A stretch of 64,000 nt of DNA from Obrimoposthia wandeli (taxonomy: Eukaryota): NCBI GenBank assembly GCA_977020255.1, contig CDROCS010001071.1, forward strand, positions 1,984,001 through 2,048,000, written 5' to 3'. Both the position numbers and the translations under genes were made by a program. This document shows positions 1-21,950 of this stretch, piece after piece. The notes below the pieces were generated by a model. That model made no database searches, was not told the DNA's origin, and saw only the letters and a program-made list of their open reading frames with translations. Every line of letters starts with the position of its first letter. Position 1 is the first letter of the stretch.

Positions 1-33
1 GAAGAAATAGTTGAGGAGGATATAATTGAAAAT

Positions 34-3000
34 ATGGCTCAACCAGGAGCTCCAGTAGATAATAATGCAGGAAATAATGTAGGAGACATGAATGCAGAAC
101 AATTGGCACTAGCCTTAAATGCGACGTTGAGACCCAACTTTTCAGGATCATTGCAGATTACAAAGTTTAAAGGAGATGAGGAAAGTATTTGTGACTTCCT
201 CGCAGAATATTCGAGTTGTGCAGATGTTCAAGGATGGAACGATAGAGAAAAATGTATCCGTGTGCAGGCACATTTGACCGGATTGGCACTTGAAGTGTAT
301 AAACATTTAACAGAAGCAGAACGTTTAGATTGGGCAACGTTGGAAAATGCTTTTATTGGAATATTGGTATTGGGAGATTTAGCAAAAGTGAATAAGCGAA
401 TCATGAGAGAACGGAAACAGAAACATGACGAAGGCGTGAATGAATACGCGTATGTTTTGAGAACCTTGGCCGCAAGAACGTACCCAAGAATAATAATGAG
501 AAATCAGGACGGTAACCCTGTAGCTCCAGAAGCACAAGTAGCGGAAAATAACCGGAACCAAAATGAAATGGCAGAAGTTTTGTTAGACATATTTAGAGGA
601 GGACTGAAAAAAGATATTAAAGTGTTATTAGCAGTATCAGACACGAATGATTTTGATAACGCCGTACGAAAGGCGAGAGAGATTGAGAAAAATATAAAAA
701 ATAACGCAGCAATGGCAATTTATGCAATGACCACAGGTGATGACGATAAGACAAAAGTATTCGTGAATAAAACAGAACCGAGTAATTTTCAGAATCGAAA
801 TTATGGACAAAATAAGTTTGAAAAAGGAGATGAATCCAGTAACGGAAACAGAGATAATTTCCGAAATAGGAATCGAGATGATTCGAGAAGTAGAAATAAT
901 AGTGAGTCTTGGAACAGGAATCGAGATGATTCAAGAGGTAGAAATAGTAATGATTCGTGGAATAGAAATAGAGATGATTCCAGGAATAGATTTAGTAGAG
1001 ATAATTCAGGAAATCGCCAACCTTGGAGAGGGGACGATAGGAATTACAACGCAAACAGAGGAGAGCGAAGTGACTCTCGATTTGGAAATAATACAGGAAG
1101 TAGGGACGGAAGATTCAATAATCGAGGAAGTGGTTTTGAATCGAATTTCCGAAGAAATTATTTTAGAGGACGCTATGACAATAGACAGAATAGTCGTCGA
1201 GTACAGTTCGAAGATGAACAAAATAAGATAGATATTCGAGGGAGAATAATGTGTTACACGTGTAAACAAATGGGTCACTATTCGAGAGATTGTACGAGAA
1301 GTAAAGAGTTCGGAACTAACAGATTTGGAAATAATAATTTCGGAAATAATAATTTTGGAAAAAATTATAGAGGATATAATTCACCTCCGCCATGGAATAG
1401 AGGTGGTGGATATACTCCACAGCCATGGAGACCGAATAACCAGTATACAGATAGACAACAGTCACCAGGTAGATACAATAACTATGCAGATAGACAGCAA
1501 GGAGCTGAGAGATACAATAATTACGTAGGACAGCAAGTAGCTGAGAGATATAATAATTCCGGTAGATATAATAATAATAATGTTGACAAGACAAATAGTC
1601 GTGAGAGTTCGCCGAAACCGAAAGGAAATTTTAGTTACGTAAATGATGACAGCGATAGGAATCGCGAGACCGAGCTTCGACGCGAAATTGATTTTGAAGA
1701 TAGTGATAGTAAATTTGAACGAATGTTAGGAATAATTAAAGATTCACCACATACAAAGATGGCGAATTCATCTACGTTGTCGAAACAAGAAAAAAGTCTA
1801 CACTCGAGAGAAGAGATAAATGATTTAATGAACCGAATACTAGAAGCGTATGAGACACCAATAGAGAAAACGTGTAACGCACAACCTATGACTGATCACA
1901 TAGAAGCAGCAAGAAATGCTACAAGTATGGAAAATTTAAAAAAGATAATTAGTGAAGCTAAGGAGACGTTGAATCAACCGTTAGATGAAACGAGTGAAGC
2001 TCCAGAAGTTTTGGCCAAATTGCAAACAATTAAAGTGCACAGATTGGAAGAAGTGCGAGCAGAATTGGTTAAACATAGTCATGATAACTTGGGTTACAAA
2101 GAAGTACCACGAGGATTATTGAAAGGATATGGTCGTTACGTACAGAGATCAAACCAAAATGGAACGATGAAAATTTCGCTTCGATTAATTTCCGGACAGA
2201 TTATACATGAAAAACTTAACGTGTATCAAACAATGAAAACTATTCGAAAAATGTTGGCCGAGAAACTTGAAATTGATGGAATGAACATGTTGTTCCATTA
2301 TAAAGGAAGATCACTAGATGACGAAGACGTACCAGTCGAGTGCGGATATCCAATAGGAAACGAATTAGAGGAAAAAATTGATGTCATTACTGTAGAACGT
2401 CAAGAGTTAGTAGATAATGAAGGATTAACGGAGATATTAAACTCCGCGTTAGAAATGATTAAAACGCCTATAGAAATTTTAGACAGTTCAAGCGAAAGCG
2501 GAGATAATGATGTAGCTGAAGCTTGGAACAAGACATCCACACCAGAACCGTACGTAGCTGAATTACAAGACGTGGAACTAGAAAATGAGTTGACGACTCC
2601 GTTGGTCGAAGTACCACCAGAACCAGAGATAATTCAAACCAGACAAGATGAAGTAACGGATATAGCTAACCAAGTGAGACAAAACGAAAACGTAACCCAA
2701 CTAGTAGGAGAAGACGAAATCTCCGAAATTATAGATTTAGATTCACCAATTTGGCATGCTGCATACAGAGATAGACAAGCAGAGCAGATGATGCGACAAA
2801 ACGAAGAGATTGGCCATGAAGAAGGACCAAGTCAAGAGATACAGTATAATGGTGAACCGTATGATCCAGGAGAGAATCAAACTGAGTATCAGTATTTTCG
2901 AAGAGGACCTGGAAGACCTAGAAAGGACGGAAGTATATTACGAAATGTTCTAACTGCACCACAAACTGATGAGGAGAGACATCTAAGCATTGGACAGTTA

Positions 3001-6000
3001 GCAGCGTCATTAGAGCAGTATAGTACGGAGCGAAATGAAGATATCAGAGGTGATATGAATTCGGAAGCTCCAAGTAGTAAAGATATACTTACGGGAATTC
3101 TCAGGCAAGTGAAGCCGAAGTTGTTCAAAATGTACAAAGATGAAACAACCGATATAACAGACAATTTGACTAAAGCAGTTAGATCACAAATGTCTGCAGT
3201 AAAGAGAATGACTGCGAATCATGTATACCATGCATCAATAGATAGATTTTATGACGGTGAAGTTTTAGCAAGATTATGTGGAAACCAGACTACAAATAAA
3301 AAGTTAATTACAGCAATCACATATCTATGTTTCCAATTGACGGAACGAACGAGCCAATCTCACGAAGTCAAACAAGGAATAAATGAAGCGATGTATTTGA
3401 TCGAGAATGTATTGCAGAGACGAATTGACGAAAACGGAGGTTGGGCAAAATTAAGTGACTACGCTAAAACCATTGTGGAAATGAACGAAGACGATGACAA
3501 ACAATGTCATGAGAACCGGCAGAGAGAAAATAAACAATACCGTCCGAAAGAAAGAAACAATCAACCAAATATGTCCACAACAATGATGATGATGATGTTA
3601 GTAATGTTCATGGGAATGCAACAGGCATCAGGGTTGATAGCATACGACTGTAGCATACCAAAAATGGGACAAAAGTATTCACTGCTTGACAGCGAAAACT
3701 GTCCAGAATCACAACCGTCAAAATTAGAAGTTAAAGGTGTTGAAAACTACTTTGTGTATCAGGATGTTGATAAGATACAAGTAGAATTGAAAGAATGTTC
3801 AGTCCATTCAAGTTATCACGAATTCTATTGTGGCCATAGAGGTTTTATGTCGGAAATCACATCTACCACACCGTACAAAGTACATAAGGTTTTTCCGAGA
3901 GATTGCGAAGACGCATTTCGAACAGGAACAATAGACAAGAATTACAAACCTGATGTAAAAGTTGGGGTGAGACGATACGAAACAGTCACGAGAGTAGGAC
4001 AACGATGGCCTGATGGATCTTGTGACGGAGGAACAAAAAACGTGCGTGGTACCAAAGTAACAGAGTTAGTAATGGACGTAACTTACAAAATCGAATTAAA
4101 AACATGGACCGCCAATTTTGATAAAAAGACACAACGAATGATGAAGTATCCGGAATGTAAAATGACAGATGCATCTTGTTTTACAGGTGAATCCACAATT
4201 GTGTATCACGTGAATCCGAAACAATGCTCTTTAGTATTTTTGAAAGAAATTAGTTTTAATAAAATAAAAGGGTTCCTGTATAATAAAGATGGAGAAGGGT
4301 TCCTGTATAATAAAGTTGGAGAAGGATTTCATAATGAAACAAGACCAATTCCTATGACGGCGACACCTACACTGTTAATGGCAACGTCAACAGAAGAAGG
4401 ATTGATATTTATTAAAAAGAGAAATAAAGCGCGATGCGGAATGACTGTTAGTACTACAAACTATCCTGGAATAGTTTTGTCCAGAGAATTAATAGCATTG
4501 GCAGAAACCAAGCTAAAACCTAGAGATATGCAGCTACACACGTATTTTAATAATAAAATTGATTTTTATTATCATAAAGGATTGATGCAAATGGAACAGT
4601 TATATCGGATGATGATCGAGAGAGATTGCCAGCTAAACAAAGAGATCGTAAGAACAAAGTTAGCATTAGCTATTACGAATCCAGACATGGTAGCACCATT
4701 ATTACCCCTGGATGAAGGAGTATTTGCTAAAACCATGGAAGAAGTATTGTATACTTACAAGTGTAATAAAGTAGAAGTACAGTTGAGAAAAACAGATCGA
4801 TGTACGAGTGAATTGGCCGTAACGCATAATTTAAAAGAACTCTTTGTTGAACCAATCACGAGAATGATACTTCCAAAAGACACTCCAACTAAAGAAATCA
4901 GCTGCTCTAATATAATGGCACCTGAATATCAGATGACGAATGATCTATGGATAACGCTACCTGACCGAAAGCCAACGAAAACTCCAGAGATGATAAAAAT
5001 GACAAATCTTAAAGGAAAAATGAAATTCGAAGCGGTAGAAAATATGGAGAACGCAGGTTTGTACAATGAAAAAGACTTAAAAGCGGCCTGGAACGAAATA
5101 ATGTTTCCAGTAAAAAGGGCCAGAGTACTTACGGAGATGGTACATCGAGCATTACCGCCAGGAGCTAGATATGCGAATTTTGATATGTTATTATCGCCAA
5201 GCCATTTCAAGGAAGCAGCACATCAGACACTTAGAAAGATGTGGGGGAAATTCCTTGTTTTAGGACAATTATTTTCGGGTATCATAGGTATTTATGTTAT
5301 AATTAAATTTGTGCAGGTAATTATAGCCCATATGTTGTCTACGTATAGTTTATACAGGATAACCGGAATCACCTGGCAACTTATAATTGGATGTTTTCCA
5401 TTTTTAGCAAAATATCTAATGCACCATCATCACGAGAACGAGTTGCGAGCCCTCAAGAAGGAGCAACATCAAACGAGAACCATGATGCGAAACCCAAGAA
5501 ACTATCGAGACGACAACAACGACGATAATGATAGTCCAGGAGAATATGCAAAGATACCAGGAAAACCAAAGATTCCGTTACCAGACAAGGAAGAAGTGGC
5601 GCTAAACCTATATCCAATGAAGGAACTAAAGGAAGAGAAGGAAAAGTTCAAGAGAGGCATTTTAATGATAAGATGGCCTAAAGTGAACTACAGTAAGATT
5701 CCAAAAGCAGAGGAAAAAGACAAAAAAGATAATTCAAGAAGAATTCTAAAGTCTAGGATATCCAATGAGAATCCAAATGCTCCACCACAAGTAGCAGTAA
5801 CACTGAACGGAAGAGAATATCTTGCCGAAGTCGATACTGGATCTGCAGTATCAGTACTGAGTAAAGAAATCTTGTCATCAAAAGAATTAAGAGAAGTATG
5901 TCCTAGAAAACAGACATTTGTTAACGTAAACGGTACAGATGTAGTGTCAGAAGGAACACTGAAATGTTCATTAAATATCGATGGAAGAGCATTGCAGTTA

Positions 6001-9000
6001 AATGCTAGAATATTCACAGATTGCGGTAGTCCAGTCATGATTGGGATGGACGTAATACGGATGTTTGAAGGAATAATTATATTACCAAACAACAAGAGTT
6101 TTAAGAACGACAGTTCAGTGAGAGAGATAAAAATGTTGAGAGGACCTATAGTCGAAAAGGAAAAATACACTATGTTCCGTATGGGAAATCCGTACCAAGA
6201 TAAGAAACAGGAAGCGCTAGTAAAGTCGATACTTCACTACAAAGATGTAAACTCCGGACCACAAGCTATGACGAGGAGGAAAATAACATATGTGAATCTG
6301 TCAGAAAAAGATCCCTTGAGAATCGAGAAAAATAGACGAAAATCATTAGAACTGTACTATTCAAAAGAAATGGCACGTAAAATGGCAAGATCAGGTTTAC
6401 AAATGTTAAACGCGACAAGTAGTTATGGTCATGAGGAAGTAGTACGATGCGTATGGTGTAGAGTAAAGTTTAGAAAGTGGGAGAAGAATGAAAACCCAAT
6501 GAAACGTCATAAAAGAGATGCACCAAATTGCCCATTTCTTTTGAAACTGAAAACTTCAAAAATACCAGAAATCCAAATGGGAAAAGCACCCGATTTCGAT
6601 TACAGTGACGAGATTCCAAAAGGAGAATCAACTCTAATAGTAGGCAGAGTAATAACAAATAGCCGAATTGAAGACATATTCGAAGTTATGCGAGAAGTGA
6701 ACGAATGTGCCGAACAATATCGAGAAGTAACTTTCGAAGATCCAAGACTTAAAAGATTGGCAAAAAAGGGACTTTTTGCTATAAAAAAGGATGGTAAAGA
6801 CGTAATTAAATGCCACAAGTGTAAAAAAGAACGAATTATCGACAGATATACTCTTGAGTTACCTAAGAAAACTTTACATCACGAATTTTGTGAATTTTGT
6901 ATTTTTAAAAACAAAATAAAGCAAAAAGAACAGAAAACAGAATGTATAATCGAATACCAAATCACACGGAAAGAGATTTTGGCTCAACAAGACACACCGG
7001 TAGTGTCATTCGTGAGAAGACTATATCCAAAAGAAGCAGAAAGAATCAGAGATTTGGTAGAATTAAAAATAAAAACTACACGAAACGGATACGGATCGAT
7101 TTTTGAATTACTAAAAGATAAAGATGATAGTACAATTGAAACAAAAGAGAAAGAGTACATAAACGAACTAGAATACGTACTGGAAGATCCGGAATGTGCA
7201 GTTTGCATGGTCAACAAAATAGAAGTTGCCTTTTTACCATGCGGACATGTAAGAACATGTCGGAGATGTGCGAAGGAAATGGTATCATGTCCGATTTGTA
7301 GAAGGATAATATATCGACAAGTGAGAAATATTAGATTTCACTATCCAAACAAAGGAAGTGGACCGACAGAGTTTAATAATTCGATAAATACAATATACCA
7401 CATGGGAAATATAAATGGAGCACAGCGACCAGCAGCTATCATTAGAGTAAATAATTTAAGAGTAAAAGCCTTAATTGATACAGGTGCGGTAGCTTCGATA
7501 GTAAGTGAAGATTGTTTGACGGAGGAACAGAAACGAACAATGGCAGAACCAGATGAATTCTTGGTATCGGTCAATGGAGACCCTGTAAAAGTGACGGGAA
7601 TATTACCATGTACATTTATAATTGGATGTAATACGATCACTATACCAGTTAGAATCATGAAAAAATGTCCTGAACCTACAATTTTAGGAATGGATGTACT
7701 ATCACAACTCAAAGGGATAAGTATTGATTTACAAGATCCAAGATTGAAGGATAGTACATCAAACAGACAAATAAACCAAATTGATGTAATTATAGAAAAT
7801 CCTATAAAAATCGGTAAAAGATCACAATTTCTCATTCAAGGTCACACATTGTCAGAAGATAAAGGACCAGTTGTGTTCGAACCATCACGGGATTTCATAG
7901 AGAAATACGAATTACCAATTGTGATTACAGCATGTCTGATTGAAAACCACAAAATACCAGTCAGACTGATGAATACAACCAACAATGACATCCTGTTATA
8001 CAGAGGAATGAGGTTGGGAAAGATAGCACAGATGGAGAATCCCACTGTGTGTGCTATGAAACTCGATAAAGACACGAATGATTACGAAGAAATAGTAATC
8101 CACTCAGAAAGACTGACAACTAGAGAAAAGAAACCATTACTTGATCTAATACATAAATTTCCGAAAGTAATTGCAAAAAATCCGTATGACATAGGAGAAA
8201 CACCTGTAATAAAACACACAATACCGCTGACGGAAGACAAAGTAGTCAGAAGAAGACCATATCGAGTACCATTACAGTTACAAGATGAAGTAAAACGTCT
8301 GATTGAAGATATGTCTAAAACAGGAGTAATTAGACCGAGTTTTTCACCATTCTCAGCACCTGTAGTGTTAGTAAAAAAGAAGGATGGAAAAATGAGATTC
8401 TGTATAGACTTCAGAGAACTGAACAAGATCACAAGAAAAGATGTGTATCCATTACCTAGAATCGAAGAGATGCTCGATAAATTAGGTAATTCAGATTATT
8501 TTACGACATTGGATTTGCAGAGTGGATACTGGCAAATCGAGATAGAGGAAGAGAACAAACACAAAACAGCCTTTTCCTGCGGAGATGGACTATACGAATG
8601 CGAAAAAATGCCATTCGGACTGACAGGAGCTCCAGCAACATTTCAGCGTTGCATGAATTTTGTACTCGCATCGTGTGCAAACACGATGGTTTATATCGAT
8701 GACATAATAATATTTTCTAAAACGTTCGAAGAACATTTAAAAAATCTTGAAGTTGTATTTAAAAGACTGGAAAACGCTAAATTAAAAGTTAAACCTACAA
8801 AATGCGATTGGGCTAAAGAGCGAGTAACATTTTTAGGACATATAGTATCGAAAGAATGCATCCGACCTGATACAGCAAAGATCGAGAATGTAAAAGCGCA
8901 TTTAGCGCCAAAGACTGTTAAGGAAATACAGAGTTTTTTAGGTCTTGCGAACTATTATAGACGATTTGTTGTACATTTTTCGGATATAGCAACACCATTG

Positions 9001-10152
9001 AGAAAGTTGACGAGGAAAGATGAGAAGTTCATATGGGGAAAGGAAGCACAACAAGCGTTCGAACATTTAAAAGAAAGACTGATAAAAGCACCAATATTAG
9101 CGTTTCCAGATATAAACCGACAATTCATACTCATGACAGATGCAAGTAACTATGCTGTAGGAGCAGTATTGGGACAAGAGGATGACGAAGGAAGAGAACA
9201 CGTCATCGCGTATGCGAGTAGAGGATTAAACAGAGCCGAAAGAGGATACTCTGTTATTGAAAAGGAATGTCTAGCCATAGTGTATTCATGTAGACAGTAC
9301 AGATACTACTTGCTAGGACAAAAAGTATTCCTGTATACAGATCACAAACCACTACAGTTCTTGTATAAACATAGAGATGAGATGAGTAGATTAAACAGAT
9401 GGTTTCTAAAATTGGCCGAATTTGACCTAGAAATCCGTTATAGAACCGGAAAGTCGAATGGCAACGCAGATTGTTTGTCGAGGTTGACAAATGTAGACGA
9501 GAAAGGAAACATAATTCCAGAAGAAGATGAAACCAACGACCAAAAAGGAGAAGCAAATCTACTAACGATTTTGCTGAAGACGGGTAAAATAGACAAAGAG
9601 ATCATCAAAGAACAGAAAGAAGATGAAGAATTGAGTCTAATAAAAGAACTGTTGGTGAAAGGAGATCTAAACGATGAAATGACGAAAAAATACTCGATAA
9701 AAGAAGGAATCTTGTATATTGTCAACAATGTCGGAAAGATAGTAGTAGTAATTCCGAAGTCATTGAAAACAGCAGTGATGATCCAGTATCACGATGGAAC
9801 ACTAGGAGGACATCTGTCAGGACGAAAGACAATAGCCAGAATCAAAGAGAAATACCATTGGGATGGTATGGAAGATGACATAAAACAATGGTGTAAACAA
9901 TGTAAAGTATGTTTAACCAGAAAAGACACCGGAACTCGTACTAAAGTTCCATTAAAACCGATGCCAGTTCCTTTGGCACCAATGGAATTCACAGCGATGG
10001 ATATATTGGGACCATTGAGAGAATCAAGTAAAGAAAACAAGTACGTCATAGTATTTACGGACTACATGACGAGATGGATAGAAGCATATCCCATGCAAAA
10101 CCAGAAGGCTGAAACAATAGCGCAGATCTTAGTGGAAGAGATAATATTTTGA
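34..10152 (+). CDS. Gag-Ubl-Bcl2-like-Env-PR-IAP-PR-RT-RH-IN polyprotein, 3372 aa, truncated in the integrase core by TGA
   Basis: Uninterrupted ORF with Gag core (~150-700), CX2CX4HX4C, two DTG proteases, YIDD RT, RNase H (TDASNYAVGAVL, TDHKPL) and integrase HHCC + DILGP. The frame is also open from base 1, so the true start may be upstream. Confidence 0.95.
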   Translation: MAQPGAPVDNNAGNNVGDMNAEQLALALNATLRPNFSGSLQITKFKGDEESICDFLAEYSSCADVQGWNDREKCIRVQAHLTGLALEVYKHLTEAERLDWATLENAFIGILVLGDLAKVNKRIMRERKQKHDEGVNEYAYVLRTLAARTYPRIIMRNQDGNPVAPEAQVAENNRNQNEMAEVLLDIFRGGLKKDIKVLLAVSDTNDFDNAVRKAREIEKNIKNNAAMAIYAMTTGDDDKTKVFVNKTEPSNFQNRNYGQNKFEKGDESSNGNRDNFRNRNRDDSRSRNNSESWNRNRDDSRGRNSNDSWNRNRDDSRNRFSRDNSGNRQPWRGDDRNYNANRGERSDSRFGNNTGSRDGRFNNRGSGFESNFRRNYFRGRYDNRQNSRRVQFEDEQNKIDIRGRIMCYTCKQMGHYSRDCTRSKEFGTNRFGNNNFGNNNFGKNYRGYNSPPPWNRGGGYTPQPWRPNNQYTDRQQSPGRYNNYADRQQGAERYNNYVGQQVAERYNNSGRYNNNNVDKTNSRESSPKPKGNFSYVNDDSDRNRETELRREIDFEDSDSKFERMLGIIKDSPHTKMANSSTLSKQEKSLHSREEINDLMNRILEAYETPIEKTCNAQPMTDHIEAARNATSMENLKKIISEAKETLNQPLDETSEAPEVLAKLQTIKVHRLEEVRAELVKHSHDNLGYKEVPRGLLKGYGRYVQRSNQNGTMKISLRLISGQIIHEKLNVYQTMKTIRKMLAEKLEIDGMNMLFHYKGRSLDDEDVPVECGYPIGNELEEKIDVITVERQELVDNEGLTEILNSALEMIKTPIEILDSSSESGDNDVAEAWNKTSTPEPYVAELQDVELENELTTPLVEVPPEPEIIQTRQDEVTDIANQVRQNENVTQLVGEDEISEIIDLDSPIWHAAYRDRQAEQMMRQNEEIGHEEGPSQEIQYNGEPYDPGENQTEYQYFRRGPGRPRKDGSILRNVLTAPQTDEERHLSIGQLAASLEQYSTERNEDIRGDMNSEAPSSKDILTGILRQVKPKLFKMYKDETTDITDNLTKAVRSQMSAVKRMTANHVYHASIDRFYDGEVLARLCGNQTTNKKLITAITYLCFQLTERTSQSHEVKQGINEAMYLIENVLQRRIDENGGWAKLSDYAKTIVEMNEDDDKQCHENRQRENKQYRPKERNNQPNMSTTMMMMMLVMFMGMQQASGLIAYDCSIPKMGQKYSLLDSENCPESQPSKLEVKGVENYFVYQDVDKIQVELKECSVHSSYHEFYCGHRGFMSEITSTTPYKVHKVFPRDCEDAFRTGTIDKNYKPDVKVGVRRYETVTRVGQRWPDGSCDGGTKNVRGTKVTELVMDVTYKIELKTWTANFDKKTQRMMKYPECKMTDASCFTGESTIVYHVNPKQCSLVFLKEISFNKIKGFLYNKDGEGFLYNKVGEGFHNETRPIPMTATPTLLMATSTEEGLIFIKKRNKARCGMTVSTTNYPGIVLSRELIALAETKLKPRDMQLHTYFNNKIDFYYHKGLMQMEQLYRMMIERDCQLNKEIVRTKLALAITNPDMVAPLLPLDEGVFAKTMEEVLYTYKCNKVEVQLRKTDRCTSELAVTHNLKELFVEPITRMILPKDTPTKEISCSNIMAPEYQMTNDLWITLPDRKPTKTPEMIKMTNLKGKMKFEAVENMENAGLYNEKDLKAAWNEIMFPVKRARVLTEMVHRALPPGARYANFDMLLSPSHFKEAAHQTLRKMWGKFLVLGQLFSGIIGIYVIIKFVQVIIAHMLSTYSLYRITGITWQLIIGCFPFLAKYLMHHHHENELRALKKEQHQTRTMMRNPRNYRDDNNDDNDSPGEYAKIPGKPKIPLPDKEEVALNLYPMKELKEEKEKFKRGILMIRWPKVNYSKIPKAEEKDKKDNSRRILKSRISNENPNAPPQVAVTLNGREYLAEVDTGSAVSVLSKEILSSKELREVCPRKQTFVNVNGTDVVSEGTLKCSLNIDGRALQLNARIFTDCGSPVMIGMDVIRMFEGIIILPNNKSFKNDSSVREIKMLRGPIVEKEKYTMFRMGNPYQDKKQEALVKSILHYKDVNSGPQAMTRRKITYVNLSEKDPLRIEKNRRKSLELYYSKEMARKMARSGLQMLNATSSYGHEEVVRCVWCRVKFRKWEKNENPMKRHKRDAPNCPFLLKLKTSKIPEIQMGKAPDFDYSDEIPKGESTLIVGRVITNSRIEDIFEVMREVNECAEQYREVTFEDPRLKRLAKKGLFAIKKDGKDVIKCHKCKKERIIDRYTLELPKKTLHHEFCEFCIFKNKIKQKEQKTECIIEYQITRKEILAQQDTPVVSFVRRLYPKEAERIRDLVELKIKTTRNGYGSIFELLKDKDDSTIETKEKEYINELEYVLEDPECAVCMVNKIEVAFLPCGHVRTCRRCAKEMVSCPICRRIIYRQVRNIRFHYPNKGSGPTEFNNSINTIYHMGNINGAQRPAAIIRVNNLRVKALIDTGAVASIVSEDCLTEEQKRTMAEPDEFLVSVNGDPVKVTGILPCTFIIGCNTITIPVRIMKKCPEPTILGMDVLSQLKGISIDLQDPRLKDSTSNRQINQIDVIIENPIKIGKRSQFLIQGHTLSEDKGPVVFEPSRDFIEKYELPIVITACLIENHKIPVRLMNTTNNDILLYRGMRLGKIAQMENPTVCAMKLDKDTNDYEEIVIHSERLTTREKKPLLDLIHKFPKVIAKNPYDIGETPVIKHTIPLTEDKVVRRRPYRVPLQLQDEVKRLIEDMSKTGVIRPSFSPFSAPVVLVKKKDGKMRFCIDFRELNKITRKDVYPLPRIEEMLDKLGNSDYFTTLDLQSGYWQIEIEEENKHKTAFSCGDGLYECEKMPFGLTGAPATFQRCMNFVLASCANTMVYIDDIIIFSKTFEEHLKNLEVVFKRLENAKLKVKPTKCDWAKERVTFLGHIVSKECIRPDTAKIENVKAHLAPKTVKEIQSFLGLANYYRRFVVHFSDIATPLRKLTRKDEKFIWGKEAQQAFEHLKERLIKAPILAFPDINRQFILMTDASNYAVGAVLGQEDDEGREHVIAYASRGLNRAERGYSVIEKECLAIVYSCRQYRYYLLGQKVFLYTDHKPLQFLYKHRDEMSRLNRWFLKLAEFDLEIRYRTGKSNGNADCLSRLTNVDEKGNIIPEEDETNDQKGEANLLTILLKTGKIDKEIIKEQKEDEELSLIKELLVKGDLNDEMTKKYSIKEGILYIVNNVGKIVVVIPKSLKTAVMIQYHDGTLGGHLSGRKTIARIKEKYHWDGMEDDIKQWCKQCKVCLTRKDTGTRTKVPLKPMPVPLAPMEFTAMDILGPLRESSKENKYVIVFTDYMTRWIEAYPMQNQKAETIAQILVEEIIF
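1252..1293 (+). other. Gag CCHC zinc knuckle (CYTCKQMGHYSRDC)
   Basis: Exact CX2CX4HX4C motif inside an R/N/G-rich region. Confidence 0.93.
2167..2400 (+). other. Ubiquitin/SUMO-like (beta-grasp) domain in polyprotein
   Basis: MKISLRLISGQII...TMKTIRKMLAEKLEI...LFHYKGRSLDD resembles ubiquitin MQIFVKTLTGKTI...TIENVKAKIQDKEGI...LIFAGKQLED; no terminal GG. Confidence 0.7.
2899..2925 (+). other. AT-hook motif RRGPGRPRK
   Basis: GRP core flanked by basic residues. Confidence 0.6.
3073..3480 (+). other. Divergent Bcl-2-like domain
   Basis: BH2-like RRIDENGGWAKLSDY (cf. WIQDNGGWDAF), preceded at the expected spacing by a BH1-position hydrophobic helix (TTNKKLITAITYLCFQL); NWGR not conserved. Confidence 0.5.
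3571..5420 (+). other. Envelope glycoprotein, chuvirus/gB-like class III fusion protein type, with internal signal peptide and C-terminal TM
   Basis: Signal peptide MMMMMLVMFMGMQQASG|LIAYDC and a Cys-rich ectodomain. Motifs YFNNKIDF..., DCQLNKEI..TKLALAITNPD, EVLYTYKCNKVEV.LR.T.RCTSELAV, LFVEPITRMIL and GLY resemble chuvirus glycoproteins. TM at ~5251-5337. Confidence 0.8.
5782..6063 (+). other. Retropepsin aspartic protease 1
   Basis: LAEVDTGSAVSVL (DTG at 5833) and C-terminal MIGMDVI. Confidence 0.88.
6325..7302 (+). other. IAP module: BIR (6325-6540), degenerate BIR (~6712-6900), C3HC4 RING (7195-7302)
   Basis: R..S...MARSG...VRCVWCRVKFRKWEKNENPMKRHKRDAPNCPFL is a canonical BIR with CxxC..H..C. 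RING CAVC..AFLPCGHVRTCRRCA...CPICR is IAP-type. Confidence 0.9.
7438..7710 (+). other. Retropepsin aspartic protease 2 (canonical pol position)
   Basis: VKALIDTGAVASIV (DTG at 7477) and ILGMDVL; followed by the usual gypsy PR-RT linker. Confidence 0.92.
8200..9490 (+). other. Reverse transcriptase and RNase H
   Basis: SPFSAPVVLVKKKDG.MRFCIDFRELN, LDLQSGYWQ, MPFGL.GAPATFQR, YIDD (8692-8703), FLGH, TDAS, EKECLAI, TDHKPL. Confidence 0.97.
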
Positions 10153-10720: not shown

Positions 10721-12041
10721 ATGTAAATTAGTACCAAATAAAGATAACACGTCACGATACGAGTTAAGATCACAGAAATTGAAGCCGAATACCAATACCA
10801 TTAAACTTACACGAATGGTAAGTGATCGAAACTACATAAATATGATGACAAGTGGTAGCGAGAGAAAACCAGTGAGAATTGGTATGCTCAGAATGAAGCA
10901 CCAAGAGGAAAAAGAAGTAATCCGACACATCGCACCACAAGAGATATTGGAAGAAGACGAAGAGATAATAGTTGTTTTCGAAAGAACACAACCAACAGAT
11001 GTGGCGAAAGAAGTCATTGTGAAAGATGCACTGACAAACGAATTTCTATGCGAACTTAGAGTGTCATACTACGACGGAAATACATTAGTCGCAGAACTAC
11101 ATCAAAACTCCAATGTGTTTACGACTGAGAAAGTGATCATCGAAATCACATTGACACCAAACATAGTTGCATGGCAGAACTATGACAGTACTGAAGCAGG
11201 ACTAGCATGTCAGGAAGAAAAAGAACCGGCCGGTGGTCACATACTGCATGGTACACCAAAAAGACTCAAACAAGAATACCACGATGTAATAATGGTATTA
11301 CGTAATTCACATGGGAAAAGAGACATAATGAGAGTTCATTTAATCGACGCTGACACTGAAAAGATAATCTGTCAGATGGACACCAAATACTTTGACGGAA
11401 AGACCATTGTATGTAATATACCGGAATCTCACCAATTAAACACAGATCAAACGGAAGTATCTGTAAGGTTGAGCGTAATAGAAGGATTTCATTCGCCAAC
11501 CCAACCGGAAGTAACAAACAATGAAATCATTAAAGCAACGGCAGAGTTACGCATTGACAGCGGATACCGGAAGTGGGAAGCTAAAAATAAACCACAAAGA
11601 ATCAATATGATCCGAGAACAAGTGACAACCTCAATTCAACCAAAATATCATGCTGAAATAGTATCAACCGCACCAAGTGTGATTACATCGATAAACGACG
11701 AAATTATAATTTTACTAAAAAATCGATGGCCGTCATCAACCGAGATACGAGTCAATTTAATTAATTATGCGAAAACACCCATATCTAAGCTGAATGTCAC
11801 CTATTTCGATGGATTGTCCATCATGGGTAAATTGGAAACAATTGTCATGTGCTACGGAGCACAGTTCCAAGTTGAGATACTTAAAGATAGTGTAATACCG
11901 TATCCAATTCACAGATACGCAGGACCAGTCAATCCAATTATTCTAACCCCTTCATTAATTTCAGTTCAGACAGACATACCAGAATTCCCTTCGAACGAGT
12001 CTAGTCAAGACAGCGAACCTGAAAGTAGCGATCCAGAATAA
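10440..12041 (+). CDS. Integrase C-terminus (GPY/F) plus three ~65-aa repeats of an unknown domain; frameshifted continuation of the polyprotein
   Basis: Frame open from 10362; FRVGDQV...KGPYKV; repeats share Y(Y/F)DGx(T/S)(L/I). Confidence 0.8.
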   Translation: MKERLQDAWTKAGLKLKFNQEGYKEQYDKKAKPHEFRVGDQVMIFYPVIEPGLSFKLHRPYKGPYKVIQTTSTNLKVINEENRNKEPMIVHANRCKLVPNKDNTSRYELRSQKLKPNTNTIKLTRMVSDRNYINMMTSGSERKPVRIGMLRMKHQEEKEVIRHIAPQEILEEDEEIIVVFERTQPTDVAKEVIVKDALTNEFLCELRVSYYDGNTLVAELHQNSNVFTTEKVIIEITLTPNIVAWQNYDSTEAGLACQEEKEPAGGHILHGTPKRLKQEYHDVIMVLRNSHGKRDIMRVHLIDADTEKIICQMDTKYFDGKTIVCNIPESHQLNTDQTEVSVRLSVIEGFHSPTQPEVTNNEIIKATAELRIDSGYRKWEAKNKPQRINMIREQVTTSIQPKYHAEIVSTAPSVITSINDEIIILLKNRWPSSTEIRVNLINYAKTPISKLNVTYFDGLSIMGKLETIVMCYGAQFQVEILKDSVIPYPIHRYAGPVNPIILTPSLISVQTDIPEFPSNESSQDSEPESSDPE

Positions 12042-13310
12042 AAGAATCCGAAGATAACATAATAGAGCGATTCGAAAAAACCATGGAGGTTGAATTCGCT
12101 AAAGAGAGCAGAAAAAGACGAAACATAGAATTCGTGAAACAGAATATACAAGAAAGACGAATCAAATCTGCAGAAGAGACCGAGTCGGAAGAGGAATCAA
12201 CAAAGGAACAGACATCAGAGACAAAGATGAATATATCTCCAGCAATACGAATGCTGAGAGGAAAGAAACTGGCGAAACTATCCAACATTGACGAACAAAT
12301 AAAGAAGAGATTAGAAAGACTAAAACTTTAAGAGTCAGAATTAATGCCACCAATGAGTGAGATCATTCCAGGTAAGTTATACCTCGGAAATGTGGAAGAT
12401 GCAACAGACGAAAAGAAACTGTTGGAACAAGGGATAACATACGTGATCAACGTTACAATGAATCACAAATCTTAATATCAGACGATCAGAGCCATGACAT
12501 TAAGAGTAAAAGACTCAATGGAGGCTAATCTTCTCGAATGGTTCGTAAAAACAAACGAGATACTTCACAGAGAACTCCAAAACCAAGGAAAAGTGTTGGT
12601 ACATTGTCAGAAAGGAATCTCCCGATCAGCAACCCTAGTATTAGCGTATCTAATAAAGACTAGACGAATGCAGGTACTAGAAGCGCTGAAATACCTGCAG
12701 GAAAGAAGAAGTATTGCAAACCCAAACCTTAATTTTTTGGGACAATTGTCAAATTACCAACTCCTGTTGCAAGAACAGAGACGGATGGACGACATCCCTG
12801 AGGATCCAAAGGAAAAGAATTTCCTCCAAGCACTATCGTTGACCGGATTATTCTTAGCCGGAGTCGATAAAATCACTCAGATAATGCCGAAAGTATTTTT
12901 ATGTTATCCAGGAGATATAGATACCGCTGGATTAAAGTTCCACAGTATCAACCGAGTAATTAATATTGTCGAAGTCGGAAATGAGATAATCAGTCTGTGT
13001 CAAAATACTGAAGATGACACAACTCGATACATACATGCTTCCAATCGAGAGATAAATGATGCACAACAACATCTGATGAAATTGACTCAAACCATTCAAG
13101 CCGAAGTCACAGAAGGAAACGGCGTTCTGATATATCAGAAAAAGGTACAATGTTAGCTCCTACCATAGGTGTATCCTTGTTGGTAGAGTACCATGATCAT
13201 ACACCAGAAGAAGCGATGGTTTATATCAAACAGAATAGACCAGACACGGAATTCAAACCGTTACTCGTTCGAGAAATAGAGAAGTACTCCGAAAAGAGGA
13301 AGCAACAACG
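12029..13310 (+). pseudogene. Charged linker plus tandem dual-specificity phosphatase domains (first with intact HCX5R, second degenerate)
   Basis: One frame from 12029 to 13156 with stops at 12329 and 12473: MSEIIPGKLYLGN..DA...GITYVINVT, VHCQKGISRSATLVLAYL, RSIANPNLNFLGQL. The second domain (ITQIMPKVFL...EEAMVYIKQNRP) crosses a frameshift at ~13140. Confidence 0.85.
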
Positions 13311-13794
13311 AGAAACAAATGAAGCTACAACAACAGTACCCAGCTATCAATACCAAAGATTGCTAGCACTAGGCTTGTTAAATTGTTTGATGCCGATAAC
13401 AGGAGCACAAGAGATAGGCTCCAACCACGGAAATAGTTCATGGTTCAAAGAAATCAACAACTACATCATACAGTACCATACACCGGCACTGATGATGCTA
13501 TTAGTGTTGTTAGGACTAATTGATGTGTGGGTCATCCGAAAATGTCTCCGATCTATGAGAACCGACAGTAAAAGATTTCAGTTTGTAAAGATGAAGAGAC
13601 CAACTGGACCAACGAACCAAGTACTTGTGTATCTAGACGAAAGGATTGAGGATAACATAGTGAATGAAGCGATATTCTATCCACAAAACAGAATACTGAA
13701 TCAATTCCGAATAGTTACGAAGCTGATCGACAGCGCACACTTGACCGAATATCAGCAACATTCGCCGGATGCAGGCGAAGAAAACGAATTGTAA
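13150..13794 (+). CDS. Polyprotein fragment: end of pseudo-phosphatase, signal peptide plus TM cassette
   Basis: LLALGLLNCLMPITGA|QE followed by TM ALMMLLVLLGLIDVWVI. Confidence 0.65.
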   Translation: MLAPTIGVSLLVEYHDHTPEEAMVYIKQNRPDTEFKPLLVREIEKYSEKRKQQRETNEATTTVPSYQYQRLLALGLLNCLMPITGAQEIGSNHGNSSWFKEINNYIIQYHTPALMMLLVLLGLIDVWVIRKCLRSMRTDSKRFQFVKMKRPTGPTNQVLVYLDERIEDNIVNEAIFYPQNRILNQFRIVTKLIDSAHLTEYQQHSPDAGEENEL

Positions 13795-13883
13795 AGGAAA
13801 TACAAAAAGATGCGGATACAAAAGGTCCGACGTATATATTCGACGGCGATGTCATCAAAACACGTGAGTATGGAAGTAAGAGA

Positions 13884-14267
13884 GTGATAATTGAAACGAT
13901 GGAAGGACATAAAACATGCTTGTCCGCCAAAAATGGATTCGGAAAGTTGACGATACAAGGTAAACAGGTACAGTTGATTATCGGAAAAACTGGAATCGAA
14001 GATATGTCAAAACAACGACAGACAACAAAACGACCTAACCAGAAACATATATTTCTCAAACGAATGATAATCAAAACCCTTTGCAAAAGGACAATCAAGG
14101 CCCTGTGCACCGTTGCACAAGGATTAATCTACGGAGTAGTAATTGGATTGGTACTACAAGCCATTCCAACCAGTAAAGCTGAATTGATGACACTATCCGA
14201 ATATAATTTACATTTGAGAAATCTAGACAACACCCTAGAAATAATCAAGACGTCCCACAGTATGTGA
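13884..14267 (+). CDS. Polyprotein fragment ending in a signal-peptide-like segment
   Basis: Frame open from ~13790; LIYGVVIGLVLQAIPTSKA|EL; overlaps the next ORF by a -1 shift. Confidence 0.55.
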   Translation: MIIETMEGHKTCLSAKNGFGKLTIQGKQVQLIIGKTGIEDMSKQRQTTKRPNQKHIFLKRMIIKTLCKRTIKALCTVAQGLIYGVVIGLVLQAIPTSKAELMTLSEYNLHLRNLDNTLEIIKTSHSM

Positions 14268-16060: not shown

Positions 16061-16184
16061 TAAGTCAGAGGAGGTTGTAGATAAATTAGTGTGTGAAATA
16101 TGTAGAAATATCTAGAAGCGATTGTACAAATAAGTAGAAATATGTAAAACTCATGTAGAAATTAATTGTCATCATGTATTTAGA

Positions 16185-16484
16185 ATGTCCGAGGAATGCC
16201 CAATATGTTTGGAAGATTTAACCGAACGAATAACAAGACCCGAAACCTGCAACCATTTACATCACAAGGAATGTTTATCAAAATGGATCAGAACTTATGG
16301 AAAATTCGTACATCCAACATACCCTCGTTGCCCTGTATGCAGAAGACAATTCACAAAGTTCATCATGATAGAACCCAACCAAGAGGATGTAGATGTACAG
16401 GTGGTATTCTGTTGGAAGAATTTCAGAGAGTGTTGGTGTTACTACTGTCTGTCAGAACGACAAAATCCGACCACTTTTGTGTAA
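16185..16484 (+). CDS. RING-H2 protein 1 (putative E3 ligase), element accessory gene
   Basis: CPIC...CNHLHHKEC..W...CPVCR plus C-terminal CW....CWCYYC. Confidence 0.85.
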   Translation: MSEECPICLEDLTERITRPETCNHLHHKECLSKWIRTYGKFVHPTYPRCPVCRRQFTKFIMIEPNQEDVDVQVVFCWKNFRECWCYYCLSERQNPTTFV

Positions 16485-16544
16485 ACATCACACAACCACC
16501 AGTCCTCAATCGAGCCCAAATTCAACACCAACCCTCTCACAGTA

Positions 16545-16850
16545 ATGTCTGGAGAATGTTCCATCTGCTACGAGAACATCGTGGACCTCTCCACCAAACC
16601 CAACAACTGCGACCACCAGTTCCACGTCGAATGCCTCGAGACGTGGATCCCAATAGCCAACAACAACAATCCCCTCGACTACCCAAACTGCCCGATGTGC
16701 AGAGCAACCTTCTCGGTGCACTATGTCTACAACCGGGACAGCCTCCAAGCAGTGGTACCCATTGTACACTGCTGGAAAAACATCTGCGACTGCTGGTGTT
16801 CGTTCTGCGTGGAGGAGCGACGCACAGTCCAGCCCAACACCCAGCAGTAA
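16545..16850 (+). CDS. RING-H2 protein 2 (paralog of RING 1)
   Basis: CSIC...CDHQFHVEC..W...CPMCR plus CW....CWCSFC; GC-richer than surroundings. Confidence 0.87.
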   Translation: MSGECSICYENIVDLSTKPNNCDHQFHVECLETWIPIANNNNPLDYPNCPMCRATFSVHYVYNRDSLQAVVPIVHCWKNICDCWCSFCVEERRTVQPNTQQ

Positions 16851-17715: not shown

Positions 17716-18270
17716 ACTGATTCATTCCCTTTTTCTGTGCTACATTTTTAGTTATGTATATAATATAATTGAACATTTGCGACCGTGTCCGAATTTTTCA
17801 TAAAAAAAAATAATACCGAGTTTTGACAAAACTTTTGGGCCTGTTTGATGAGTTTGAATGATTGAAATTAAGTGGGGATATTTCTAAAATCTGAGGCTAA
17901 TAAGTTTAGTAAAATAAAATCGATACGTTCCGGGGACGTAACTTTTTCAGAACCCCCGAGATATGTTAGGTTTAGGTTTTGGAAACAAATTAAATAATTA
18001 ATTGATTTTATAGTAAAATGAAAATCCTTGAAAGCAAGGTTAGAATTAAATAAATTTTATATTAAAATTAAAATTGTTGAGTTTAGATAGTAAATAAATA
18101 TTAGAGGACCACGAAGGTCGTGTGTAATGCGTAAGTATATAAGATATTAAGTTTAAAAACAAAGGGCCCCAAAAAACAGAGTTGCCAAGAAGAAAAAAGA
18201 ATTACAAAGAAAATTGGAAAGACAAGTGCAATTAGCAGAAAATTGGAAAATATCATTAGAAGAAAAATCA

Positions 18271-18478
18271 AGCCACGTCAACTCAGCCACGTCACAACAG
18301 CTGTTTTCCTGAGGTAATTAATTACTTGAACTTGGCTCAAATTAGAGAATCCTCGTTGAAACGAGAACCACAGGAAGAAGTGAGTGACAAGCCACGTCAC
18401 CCAACAATCCACGAGAAGAAATCCATTGCCAACAGCTGGACTCAGTACACACGCCTAAATAGAAAATAGACTATATAA
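18271..18478 (+). promoter_or_regulatory. LTR promoter: three AGCCACGTCA bZIP sites and a TATA box (TATATAA, 18472-18478)
   Basis: Exact 10-mer at 18271, 18285 and 18390, upstream of TATA. Candidate leader splice donor AAG|GTAAGA at 18563. Confidence 0.55.
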
Positions 18479-19000
18479 GTCTACGTATAGAAGAAAATAT
18501 ACCCCCAAAAAGAAATCAATACTGCACCAGGAGACAAGACAGAAGACGAAATCGACACGAAGGTAAGATGAGTAGGAACATCTCCACCAAATTTAAGTTG
18601 AAACGCGCAGATAATCAGTGTGACAATACAACACAAGCCGATTTCGCGATCAACACAGCGGAACGATCGTGCCGATAGCAGACAGCTCTGGGAAGTCCGA
18701 ATCTCAATTCAAACGCCAGATCTCGCACCAGAACAACAAACGGAAGTAGTATCTAATTCTGCACCGGACGCAGTGGGAACAACATCACTACAGTACCTAC
18801 AAATAACAAGAGCAATTCAAGCAGAGCTACCGGATCTCAACGAAGGATCGTTCGTGATTATCGCAGTCAATTCGCGTGCGGGATTTGATAACTGGAGCAA
18901 ACTAAAGGTATAAATACCCACAAATTTGAAGGAAAAGTTAGCAAGATTAATTTCGTTGAAGTTCAATTTTGTTAAAGTTATAAAGATTAAGTTCGCTGAA

Positions 19001-20140
19001 GTTGATTCGTTTAAGTAAAATTGAATTAAATACCGTTGATTCGTTTGAGTAAAATTGAATTAAATACCATTGATTTGTTTTAAGTAAAATTGAATTAAAT
19101 AACCGTTGATTCGTTTAAGTAAAATTGAAATAAATACCCGTTGATTTGTTTAAGTAAAATTGAATTAAATACCATTGATTTGTTTAAGTGAAATTGAATT
19201 AAATACCGTTGAATTGTTTGAGTAAAATTGAATTAAATACCATTGATTTGTTTTAAGTAAAATTGAATTAAATAACCGTTGATTCGTTTAAGTAAAATTG
19301 AATTAAATACCATTGATTTGTTTAAGTGAAATTGAATTGAATACCGTTGAATTGTTTAAAGTGAAATTGAATTAAATACCGTTGATTCGTTTAAGTAAAA
19401 TTGAATTAAATACCATTGATTTGTTTTAAGTAAAATTGAATTAAATAACCGTTGATTCGTTTAAGTAAAATTGAATTAAATACCATTGATTTGTTTTAAG
19501 TAAAATTGAATTAAATAACCGTTGATTCGTTTAAGTAAAATTGAAATAAATACCCGTTGATTTGTTTAAGTAAAATTGAATTAAATACCATTGATTTGTT
19601 TAAGTGAAATTGAATTAAATACCGTTGAATTGTTTGAGTAAAATTGAATTAAATACCATTGATTTGTTTTAAGTAAAATTGAATTAAATAACCGTTGATT
19701 CGTTTAAGTAAAATTGAATTAAATACCATTGATTTGTTTTAAGTAAAATTGAATTAAATAACCGTTGATTCGTTTAAGTAAAATTGAAATAAATACCCGT
19801 TGATTTGTTTAAGTAAAATTGAATTAAATACCATTGATTTGTTTAAGTGAAATTGAATTAAATACCGTTGAATTGTTTGAGTAAAATTGAATTAAATACC
19901 ATTGATTTGTTTAAGTGAAATTGAATTGAATACCGTTGGATTGTTTAAAGTGAAATTGAATTAAATACCGTTGATTCGTTTGTGTAAAATTGAATTAAAT
20001 ACCATTGATTTGTTTAAGTAAAATTGAATTAAATACCGTTGATTCGTTTGAGTAAAATTGAATTAAATACCATTGATTTGTTTAAGTAAAATTGAATAAA
20101 TACCCGTTGATTCGTTTAAGTAAAATTTAATTAAATACCC
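19001..20140. repeat. ~34-bp tandem satellite inside LTR, ~33 copies, alternating variants
   Basis: Unit GTAAAATTGAATTAAATACC(G/A)TTGATT(C/T)GTTTAA. The array is bracketed by a ~50-bp direct repeat (18913-18965 and 20135-20185). Confidence 0.95.
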
Positions 20141-21950
20141 GCAAATTTGAAGGAAAATTATAAAGATTAATTACGTTGACGTTCGATTCGTTTAAGTAAA
20201 ATTGAATTAAATATTGGAGAAATAAGATCTCCAACTCATTTCATAGATTAGAGCAACCAGCTTCCCAGAAGACTTCTTACTTAACGTTGTTACATTTGGA
20301 GTACAGACTCTAGTAACCATCTAACCCTAACGTTAAAATCGATACGTGGTTCATCCCCACTTGAGTAGAGACTTTCAGAAGTCTTAGGAATTTTACTACA
20401 ACTTTTTAGAAAATACGTACGTAAACGTATTGTTTTGTTTAGTCTAGTGTGTTAACAATAAACGATTTCCTACATTAGAAAGCATTGTTCTAAAACCTTC
20501 AGATTAAGAGACATTGAAAAACAAACACCTTCAGATAAGCATTGAGACAGGCAACTATAACATTAGGTAGGCCACGACCAACTTTAAGACCTGCTTCTAT
20601 AAGAACTCACGTTGGGGCCCTCCACATTCAAGAGGATCTATAAGTTTCATATAGAAACCCCAACATTTTCTCAGTGGCCTGTAATGGTCATAGCTTTTGC
20701 TAAATAGGCAAACCTTATCGGTAGGATTTTAGAATTTCATGAGTTATATTATCTATATATACCATTTTATCTGTCAGCTACACGTTATGAAATAATCCGA
20801 TTTTTTCATTCTTGAATTACATATTAGTGAGTTAACCTTGTTATTGGTCATTTGCCTCATATTCGATATCTGATTTGTGTATTATATATTACTAAGTCAA
20901 TATACTGGTTGGTTGAATAGCTACACCAAAAGTGGAACACAAATTACGCTGGTTTATTGTAAATTCATATATAGTACTATTTTAGAAAAAATCAATATAT
21001 GCATAGCGGATTCTAGTAATTTTGAAGTACTGCATACAATAACTTCCAAAAATGGGGAATAACCAGAATAAGCCGGCAACACAGGTTATATACTTTTTTA
21101 AGAACTCACGCACCAGAGGCTTCTAATAAATGTAACAACTCTGAACCTAAAAGTAGAAAATAATTAGATTTTCTGGATTTAAAGACTTATTTAAATGTTA
21201 CATAATATATTCTGTTGTATGTTGATAATTCTAATGTTATATGTGTTAATAATACTTTTTATCATACATCAAAGCTATCTAATATTTATATTAAAATATA
21301 AATGTAATTTCATCAGAAAATTACATACATAATCAATTTCAATGAACAAAGTGTCAAGTCAGTTTTTTAATACAATTTATTTATTAGTGATTTTAAATCA
21401 TAACAATATAATTTTATTCTAATTATAGGCAATCTTGTTATTACATGGAATTCTTTCTGTAATGACATTAAAAAACTATTTACATATCTAAGACACTAAC
21501 ATTGAAATGAATCGTTAATTATTATATAATTTACAAACTATTTGTGATTTCTGATTTTGGAAAAACATTGTGAATCATGTTGTCTTTTTATAATTTTGAC
21601 TCTTCAATTTTTGTTGCTTAATCGTACAATTTGTCAAGTAATTTTTAGACTATGAAACTAGGATTTTAATTGTTAAAAATATTTTAAACCCTTACTCGAA
21701 TTTAAAAATAATTTATTGATTTGTTTCAAAAAATCACATATTTATATACATTTAAAAAAGCTTAAATACAAAATAAATAAGTTGGAAATTAAATAATTAT
21801 TCATAGAATAATATTAAACAAATTAATTTAGTATTGTATTTTAATGAATCAATTAAATTGCTAAAAATTTACGAACAATTTTAAAAATATGTTTATAAAT
21901 AATCGCCATTATATATAATTTTCGCCAGCTGATAGCTTTCCTACCCATTC

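Follow-up and report, generated by a model that had tools for sequence, protein, structure and literature searches.

Why should a single retrotransposon polyprotein hold two proteases, and what is an inhibitor of apoptosis protein (IAP) doing between them? The question arises from a 64,000-nucleotide stretch of Obrimoposthia wandeli DNA (assembly GCA_977020255.1, contig CDROCS010001071.1, positions 1,984,001 to 2,048,000 of the forward strand), here called the window, which opens inside a giant Burro-like Gypsy long terminal repeat (LTR) element. The usual view is that retroviruses and LTR retrotransposons have a single protease, which dimerises as the particle assembles. In contrast, this element encodes two retropepsins held under selection of equal strictness, and as many as four occur in relatives. 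The original prediction, made from the letters alone, had placed a PR1-BIR-BIR-RING-PR2 arrangement at 5782..7710. The order, the two DTG proteases, the first BIR and the RING are borne out by Pfam and motif analysis; the second BIR proved degenerate, a UBA-like domain had been missed, and PR2 runs on slightly past 7710, to about 7743. The segment contains the following features.

5779..6099, + strand: PR1, the Env-proximal retropepsin, D-T-G at 5833-5841 (PF13975)
6127..6138, + strand: IKML, candidate protease site at the IAP N-terminus, kept in 64/66 covered copies
6319..6549, + strand: BIR1, canonical zinc motif Cx2Cx16Hx6C at 6448-6531 (PF00653, E 2.4e-13)
6718..6906, + strand: degenerate BIR-like domain (BIR2), Cx2Cx18Hx3C at 6811-6891 (HHalign)
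6967..7128, + strand: UBA-like domain of cIAP/XIAP type (profile matches; helical bundle, pLDDT 64-80)
7186..7338, + strand: IAP-type C3HC4 RING with a 13-residue tail (PF13920, E 4.6e-12)
7384..7395, + strand: INTI, candidate protease site between the IAP and PR2, kept in 65/67 copies
7423..7743, + strand: PR2, the Pol-proximal retropepsin, D-T-G at 7477-7485 (PF13975)

On balance we favour, with some caution, a reading in which both proteases would be catalytic, the IAP would be excised from the polyprotein, PR2 would mature Pol and PR1 would give an early release driven from the membrane. Both proteases match PF13975 above its curated cut-off (E 3.7e-7 in 5701-6150 and E 2.6e-8 in 7381-8100). 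Their catalytic motifs are DTGS at nucleotide 5833 and DTGA at nucleotide 7477, and both carry the second hydrophobic-hydrophobic-G-x-D motif (MIGMD in PR1, ILGMD in PR2). They align to each other without gaps, with 30% identity over 99 amino acids (E 6e-17). Ty3/Gypsy and retroviral retropepsins are single domains that act as homodimers. PR1 and PR2 resemble them in the D[TS]G and hydrophobic-G-x-D motifs, in a length of about 107 amino acids and in the usual position of PR2 before the reverse transcriptase (RT). They differ in number and placement: polyproteins of the clade carry two to four D[TS]G-intact copies, located behind the Env tail and behind the integrase.

Selection on the two domains was compared in 67 copies: the window copy, its 24 best DNA matches, the best 40 of the 88 matches scored in a search with the IAP homologue P0002, and two more. 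This sample is biased and falls largely into two subfamilies of 34 and 29. Changes shared by four or more copies were set against private ones, and replacement:silent counts were compared by Fisher test. In PR1 the shared changes were 0:22 against 37:17 private (p 8e-9); in PR2 they were 0:8 against 52:24 (p 2e-4). D-T-G is present in 64 of the 65 copies that cover PR1 and in 66 of 67 for PR2. Beyond the sample, one exact PR1 flank pattern was found 678 times in the genome and D-T-G is kept in 630 of these flank-matched copies, so the possibility raised in the original prediction, that PR1 is degenerate in most copies, does not hold. PR2 keeps D-T-G in 35/35 flank-matched copies, the window's PR2 flank pattern being rare. 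Because shared changes in PR1 are 0:22 and 630 of 678 copies keep D-T-G, PR1 is no relic; it is under purifying selection as strong as that on PR2.

The IAP between the proteases has BIR, UBA and C3HC4 RING in the order of cellular cIAP1/XIAP. Only BIR1 passes the Pfam BIR profile PF00653. BIR2 falls below the cut-off and, with zinc spacing Cx2Cx18Hx3C instead of Cx2Cx16Hx6C, is not a second canonical BIR; it is remotely homologous to 120 canonical BIRs (HHalign probability 90%, E 1.4e-6), starts with the BIR helix-helix-three-strand arrangement in an AlphaFold model (pLDDT about 70-76), and its four zinc ligands are invariant in five homologues and kept in 64/67 copies. The UBA-like profile matches 6 of 144 canonical IAPs at E<1e-3 (best 7.5e-5) and none among reversed decoys, and the domain aligns weakly to the cIAP1 UBA in 3t6p. 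The top Protein Data Bank (PDB) matches of the RING are cIAP/XIAP RING structures, and the arginine matching cIAP1 Arg614 is kept in its tail. Zinc ligands of BIR1 are retained in 66/67 copies and the RING is intact in 63/67. Shared replacement:silent counts are 1:7 for the RING (p 0.004), 2:10 for the UBA (p 0.002) and 9:4 for BIR2, against 37:12 private in the latter (p 0.73). Unlike cIAP1/XIAP, this IAP is embedded in a polyprotein, has two BIRs of which the second is degenerate, and lacks a CARD. The AlphaFold model, built from a five-row alignment (mean pLDDT 47.8), did not resolve the RING; only BIR1, the opening half of BIR2 and the helices of the UBA can be used. Its top Foldseek matches are BIR domains, none at E<=0.001 in the PDB, which indicates BIR likeness only; such fold searches do not discriminate a host from a viral origin.

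The four closest IAP homologues (P0002, P0003, P0005 and P0011; 26-31% identity in a search of 1.84 billion representatives) are free open reading frames (ORFs) without a protease. They share the degenerate BIR2 (Cx2Cx18-19Hx3C) and the UBA, and stop 13-29 amino acids past the last RING cysteine; 67 of 85 canonical IAPs end 13 residues after it. They may represent genes of the host, copies that were domesticated, or accessory ORFs belonging to related elements. Baculovirus IAPs, to our knowledge, lack a UBA. Because a UBA is present, and UBA is a feature of cellular cIAP/XIAP according to PMC7290580, the IAP is probably host-derived, from a source of that type. A search for the donor found no host IAP: the search with P0002 gave only element copies (88 scored) and that with PF21290 gave no match. 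The ESM Atlas gave no informative match for the PR1-IAP-PR2 segment, and word-index protein searches with this region returned nothing at E<=0.001 among long proteins, which is weak evidence.

BIR1 and the stretch before it change quickly (15/77 and 16/73 codons vary) with the zinc ligands kept, a pattern that points to relaxed or diversifying selection. Many amino-acid changes in 6100-6549 are shared among copies, some with three alleles, and a conflict with the host is a possible cause of this fast change.

Four linkers of the window frame contain a four-residue hydrophobic motif: ILMI (5659), IKML (6127), INTI (7384) and VCAM (8047). Among relatives, such a motif precedes 23 of 32 proteases (3.2 in shuffles) and occurs at 10 of 16 RT or integrase flanks (2.7 in shuffles). 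Charged motifs returned by an unsupervised search for cleavage motifs were rejected as no better than shuffles. Cuts after IKML (6138) and INTI (7395) are predicted to yield a protein of about 419 amino acids with the RING 32 residues from its end, 19 extra C-terminal residues compared with cIAP1/XIAP. The excision of a free IAP suggested in the original prediction agrees both with these linker motifs and with the way the free-standing homologues stop shortly past the RING. According to PMC6349121 and PMC7290580, the activity of IAP RING dimers depends on the C-terminal tail.

Whether the second protease belongs to the IAP can be judged from relatives. An Env-Pol alignment search gave 21 proteins, of which 15 were kept as having this Env plus a protease; four Gypsy proteins without Env, one Bel/Pao-like protein and one plant RT were dropped. 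Two pairs among the 15 are near-duplicates, which reduces the number of independent lineages. A protease profile detected 38 domains in these 15 proteins, with two to four proteases after Env in 12 of them. Seven of the ten relatives with RT read Env-PR-X-PR-RT and eight of these ten have a further protease after the integrase, which the window copy lacks. D[TS]G is kept in 40/40 domains, the window's two included. BIR or RING was found in none of the 15, and their inter-protease spacers, of 28-379 amino acids, hold C2H2 fingers or charged low-complexity sequence. At 19 of 30 loci (L083-L088, L090, L091, L093-L095 and L100-L107) the same genome holds a sister family with the order Env-PR-RT, which has a single protease, lacks an IAP and offers a natural control. 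The other 11 loci comprise one copy of the window family, five exons, presumably DDI1-like, and five unrelated proteases that we take to be of bacterial type. Because extra proteases occur without an IAP in relatives and IAP homologues occur without proteases, the proteases are not tied to the IAP; the inter-protease spacer is best read as a cargo slot and the IAP as one filling. The idea that the proteases mark an IAP cassette acquired from another retroelement is thus not supported.

Among these proteins, the metagenome Env-bearing Gypsy polyproteins with two to four D[TS]G-intact proteases are P0044, P0079, P0155-P0160, P0162 and P0164-P0167. P0044 carries four proteases in an ORF that lacks RT. 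In several relatives the post-integrase protease is followed by a signal-peptide-like stretch and membrane cargo. The bacterial-type aspartyl proteases at L078-L082 are unrelated to the element and possibly represent bacterial DNA in the assembly.

Local alignment scores of PR1 are 145 with PR2, 136, 135 and 129 with the next clade proteases (129 being the sister family) and 119-145 with clade proteases overall, against 31-44 with four ordinary Gypsy proteases. PR1 thus resembles PR2 and the clade proteases and not the ordinary Gypsy ones. Protease phylogenies, of the kind proposed as a check in the original prediction, supported a split but left PR1 unplaced. In trees without the near-duplicates P0155 and P0159 and the long-branch P0169, Pol-adjacent and single proteases separate from accessory ones (support 96/97 and 98/97), and PR2 groups with the former. 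The approximately unbiased (AU) test gives PR1 p 0.41 with PR2, 0.33 with the accessory proteases and 0.128 with three outgroup Gypsy proteases; without outgroups, a tree with PR1 and PR2 together scores 1.95 log units better than the free search. A single clade of all Env-adjacent proteases is rejected (p 0.001), and therefore duplication or shuffling has occurred repeatedly. The RT and Env trees leave the window's nearest kin unplaced.

The favoured reading can be spelled out as follows. A hydrophobic stretch precedes Env and a transmembrane segment follows it in all 16 polyproteins. Signal peptidase would split Gag from Env, and the PR1-IAP-PR2-Pol part would then hang from the cytosolic tail of membrane-anchored Env and not on Gag. 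PR1, presumably an accessory copy from within the clade, would dimerise at the membrane and could start processing without waiting for capsid assembly, with PR2 acting as the ordinary protease of Pol maturation. The element's proteases would cut at the conserved linker motifs, and the product set free would be a BIR-BIR'-UBA-RING ubiquitin ligase, its RING near the C-terminus as in free IAPs. Once freed, the ligase would favour survival of the host cell.

Several observations weigh against parts of this account. The hydrophobic motif was defined by eye after the flanks had been viewed, and is thus post hoc, and the unsupervised search scored 198.8 on real sequences, within the range of the shuffles (mean 179, max 202, n 328). 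The motif matches 16 times in the frame, and six of the ten matches in this region lie inside domains or in the N-terminal part of the IAP. Conservation of IKML and INTI is not significant alone, as 16/73 neighbouring codons vary. A second, weaker hydrophobic segment (1.0-1.6) follows the Env transmembrane segment, so the proposed topology stays conditional. PR1 shifts in the trees, being nearest to PR2 by path with outgroups and among the accessory proteases without them. Because single-protease relatives exist, a second protease is not needed for the life cycle of such elements. As for the cargo, shared changes in BIR1 are indistinguishable from private ones (19:15 against 41:21, p 0.38). 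The RING tail has Ile at the position of cIAP1 Phe616, with a Phe two places later. At positions where most canonical BIRs have Glu (257/407) and Trp/His, BIR1 instead carries Arg and Asp. These positions presumably correspond to the peptide groove of BIRs. Because BIR1 departs from the 407 canonical BIRs there, ubiquitination seems likelier than direct capture of caspase peptides, and the IAP probably acts through its UBA-RING part more than through classical caspase-peptide binding.

Other explanations fit some of the same data. PR1 and PR2 might form one intramolecular pseudo-dimer, a tethered retropepsin that processes the whole polyprotein at low concentration while the IAP loops out and is released as a by-product. 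The gapless alignment, the rank of PR2 as best pairwise match of PR1 and the lack of shared replacements in both would suit such a tether, as would the very short spacers of some relatives (28, 36, 44, 48 and 55 amino acids). However, folded domains fill the 442-amino-acid spacer here, the number of proteases is three in many relatives and one in others, and the closest kin of a protease is usually not another from its own element; we consider this arrangement rather improbable. It is somewhat less probable still that PR1 is an accessory effector protease directed at host death or innate-immune proteins or at Env, leaving PR2 to process the polyprotein, IAP ends included. Accessory and Pol-adjacent proteases share the linker motif ahead of them, and the absence of shared replacements in PR1 is unlike a protein in conflict with host substrates. 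Nevertheless, accessory proteases form a faster-evolving set apart from the Pol-adjacent ones (96/97) that always keeps D[TS]G, and the neighbouring cargo (IAP, RING ORFs, phosphatase) looks host-manipulating.

That an unrelated retroelement or virus supplied PR1 and the IAP together, as one cassette, is unlikely, and we would give it little credence: the AU test tolerates PR1 with the three outgroup proteases (p 0.128), the PR1 branch is long and viral IAPs share the fold, but the alignment scores lie far closer to the clade than to ordinary Gypsy proteases, multi-protease relatives have no IAP and the closest IAP homologues no protease. In addition, no retroelement genes lie beside 36 metagenome or viral loci that match the IAP or RING, and the UBA again points to a cellular cIAP/XIAP source (PMC7290580). 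That PR1 is a decaying duplicate without function deserves hardly any weight. D-T-G is lost in 48/678 flank-matched copies and a stop codon lies within PR1 in 7/65 sampled copies, but these losses are mostly private and post-insertion, and the PR1 protein is 100% identical in at least 150 copies (150/150 scored matches), all of them in the first 297 of 6912 contigs.

Extended to the clade, the favoured reading becomes tentative, and we regard what follows as doubtful in its full form. The retropepsin may serve as a repeatable cargo-release module, in which accessory proteases of a distinct, D[TS]G-intact lineage behind the Env anchor and the integrase would fire independently of capsid assembly and free swappable host-manipulating cargo (here a fast-evolving IAP ligase, elsewhere zinc fingers), while the Pol-adjacent protease matures the particle. 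Early release of this kind would explain how an IAP embedded in a polyprotein, as in Burro1, gains access to the cytosol with the RING close to a free terminus. It would also explain how such elements go on gathering host-derived domains within one frame. It would amount to a multi-protease processing programme as in large RNA viruses; we know of such programmes from those viruses and of none from retroelements. The defined candidate sites, the two catalytic residues and the one-protease sister family offer direct tests.

An IAP in a Burro polyprotein is already known, and the cargo itself is not new. Burro1 encodes a BIR and RING protein, B-IAP, which is reported to shield stem cells from death by caspases (Lee et al. 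2026, as summarised in PMC13465017), and Burro1 is expressed when PIWI control fails (PMC8532177). The original prediction read the element as Gypsy and did not recognise it as Burro-like, a kind with a published in-polyprotein BIR/RING IAP. No description of a two-protease Gypsy element was found in the literature searched; outside it, Lee 2026, Grohme 2018 and Figure 2A of PMC6431247 may already show two. Multiplication of the protease across the clade is the part most likely to be new.

The element is Burro-like by its layout compared with the published Burro description; no named Burro element was among the matches of protein searches with element queries. The planarian Burro/GYPSM1 elements are giant Gypsy-like LTR elements with Gag-CCHC, ubiquitin-like and BCL2-like domains, an in-frame Env between gag and pol, and BIR, PR, dUTPase-like, RT, RH and IN domains (PMC6431247). 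The window family shares the single huge ORF, the Gag-CCHC, a ubiquitin-like domain (weak), the in-frame Env related to mononegavirus fusion proteins, a BIR (here with a RING), a domain between PR and RT and a very high copy number. Unlike Burro1/GYPSM1, at more than 30 kb, it measures 23-24 kb, and the MATH and ankyrin domains of those elements had no Pfam match in 17 frames scanned. The Burro text of PMC6431247 names one PR and does not place the BIR, whereas here two PRs flank it. The other parts of the element are listed below.

1..10152, + strand: giant Gag-Env-Pol open frame of a Burro-like Gypsy LTR element (stop-free frame, Pfam)
1252..1296, + strand: Gag CCHC zinc knuckle (PF00098, E 1.2e-5)
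2161..2340, + strand: ubiquitin-like domain, weak (PDB matches, blastp to 6 relatives)
3061..3495, + strand: possible Bcl-2-like domain (25% blastp match to P0165)
3583..5370, + strand: signal-peptide-like stretch, Env (Monjiviricetes-type fusion glycoprotein) and transmembrane segment (PF24664, E 1.7e-90)
7771..8070, + strand: conserved domain between PR and RT (blastp to 10/10 relatives having RT)
8371..10149, + strand: RT, RNase H, integrase zinc domain and start of the integrase core (PF00078, PF17917, PF17921, PF00665)
17950..20170, + strand: approximate 3' LTR region with a 34-35 bp tandem array (homology limit, array, self-comparison)

The stop-free frame starts 320 nucleotides upstream of the window. 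In Pfam order it reads CCHC knuckle, Env, aspartyl protease, BIR, RING, aspartyl protease, RT, RNase H and integrase, and its PR-RT-RNase H-integrase order is that of Ty3/Gypsy LTR retrotransposons. In the window copy it ends at an in-frame stop inside the integrase core, and about 80 bp of the integrase are missing; in some copies, frames that run through PR1 stay open for up to 5,478 codons. The best PDB match of the ubiquitin-like domain is ISG15 (E 0.0018), with ubiquitin variants and SUMO also matching, a weak but consistent signal. The Bcl-2 likeness of 3061..3495 has no direct Pfam or PDB match; the region of P0165 that matches it hits PF00452 at E 0.0015, below the cut-off. A GRPR motif at 2905-2930 (+ strand), presumably AT-hook-like, lies between the ubiquitin-like domain and Env and also occurs in P0044 and P0079. 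Env lies in frame between Gag and Pol, with its transmembrane segment at 5269-5325. The label dUTPase-like for the domain at 7771..8070 comes from the Burro description (PMC6431247).

The family is present in high copy number, the best 40/40 scored DNA matches being 98-100% identical, and over 11 kb the window copy shares about 94% identity with two others, L068-L072 and L073-L077. These measure 23,353 and 24,359 bp, with LTRs of 1.9 and 2.4 kb that are 99% and 98% identical, TG...CA ends and a 4-bp target-site duplication. Just inside their 5' LTR lies a primer-binding-site-like stretch, which we take to be complementary to the 3' end of elongator tRNA-Met. Homology of the window copy to other copies stops near 18,100, where their 3' LTR starts, and the LTR ends of the window copy are approximate; no matching 5' LTR was found by self-comparison within 20 kb upstream of the window. 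An array of 34-35 bp units spans 18844-20170, and the LTRs of other copies likewise contain internal repeats.

Between the integrase and the 3' LTR, three repeats at 10860-11960 (+ strand) resemble IPT/TIG domains; their top ESM Atlas matches are TIG clusters at 0.90, with low recognition. A dual-specificity phosphatase cargo follows at 12340-13300 (+ strand; PF00782, E 4.6e-30), split over frames in the window copy and apparently accompanied by a second phosphatase-like half. ORFs at 13060-16060 (+ strand) contain hydrophobic signal- or membrane-like stretches and a lysine-rich repeat, none above a Pfam cut-off, and three short, separate tandem ORFs of RING-H2 type (PF13639) lie at 16134-17715 (+ strand), in a stretch of higher GC before the 3' LTR. 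Outside the element, a Spin-doc/BED zinc-finger ORF and the ORF next to it at 39500-41095 (+ strand) are probably the remnant of a hAT-type DNA transposon, and an ORF at 55210-55824 (- strand) encodes a GNAT acetyltransferase (PF13673, E 4.8e-9).

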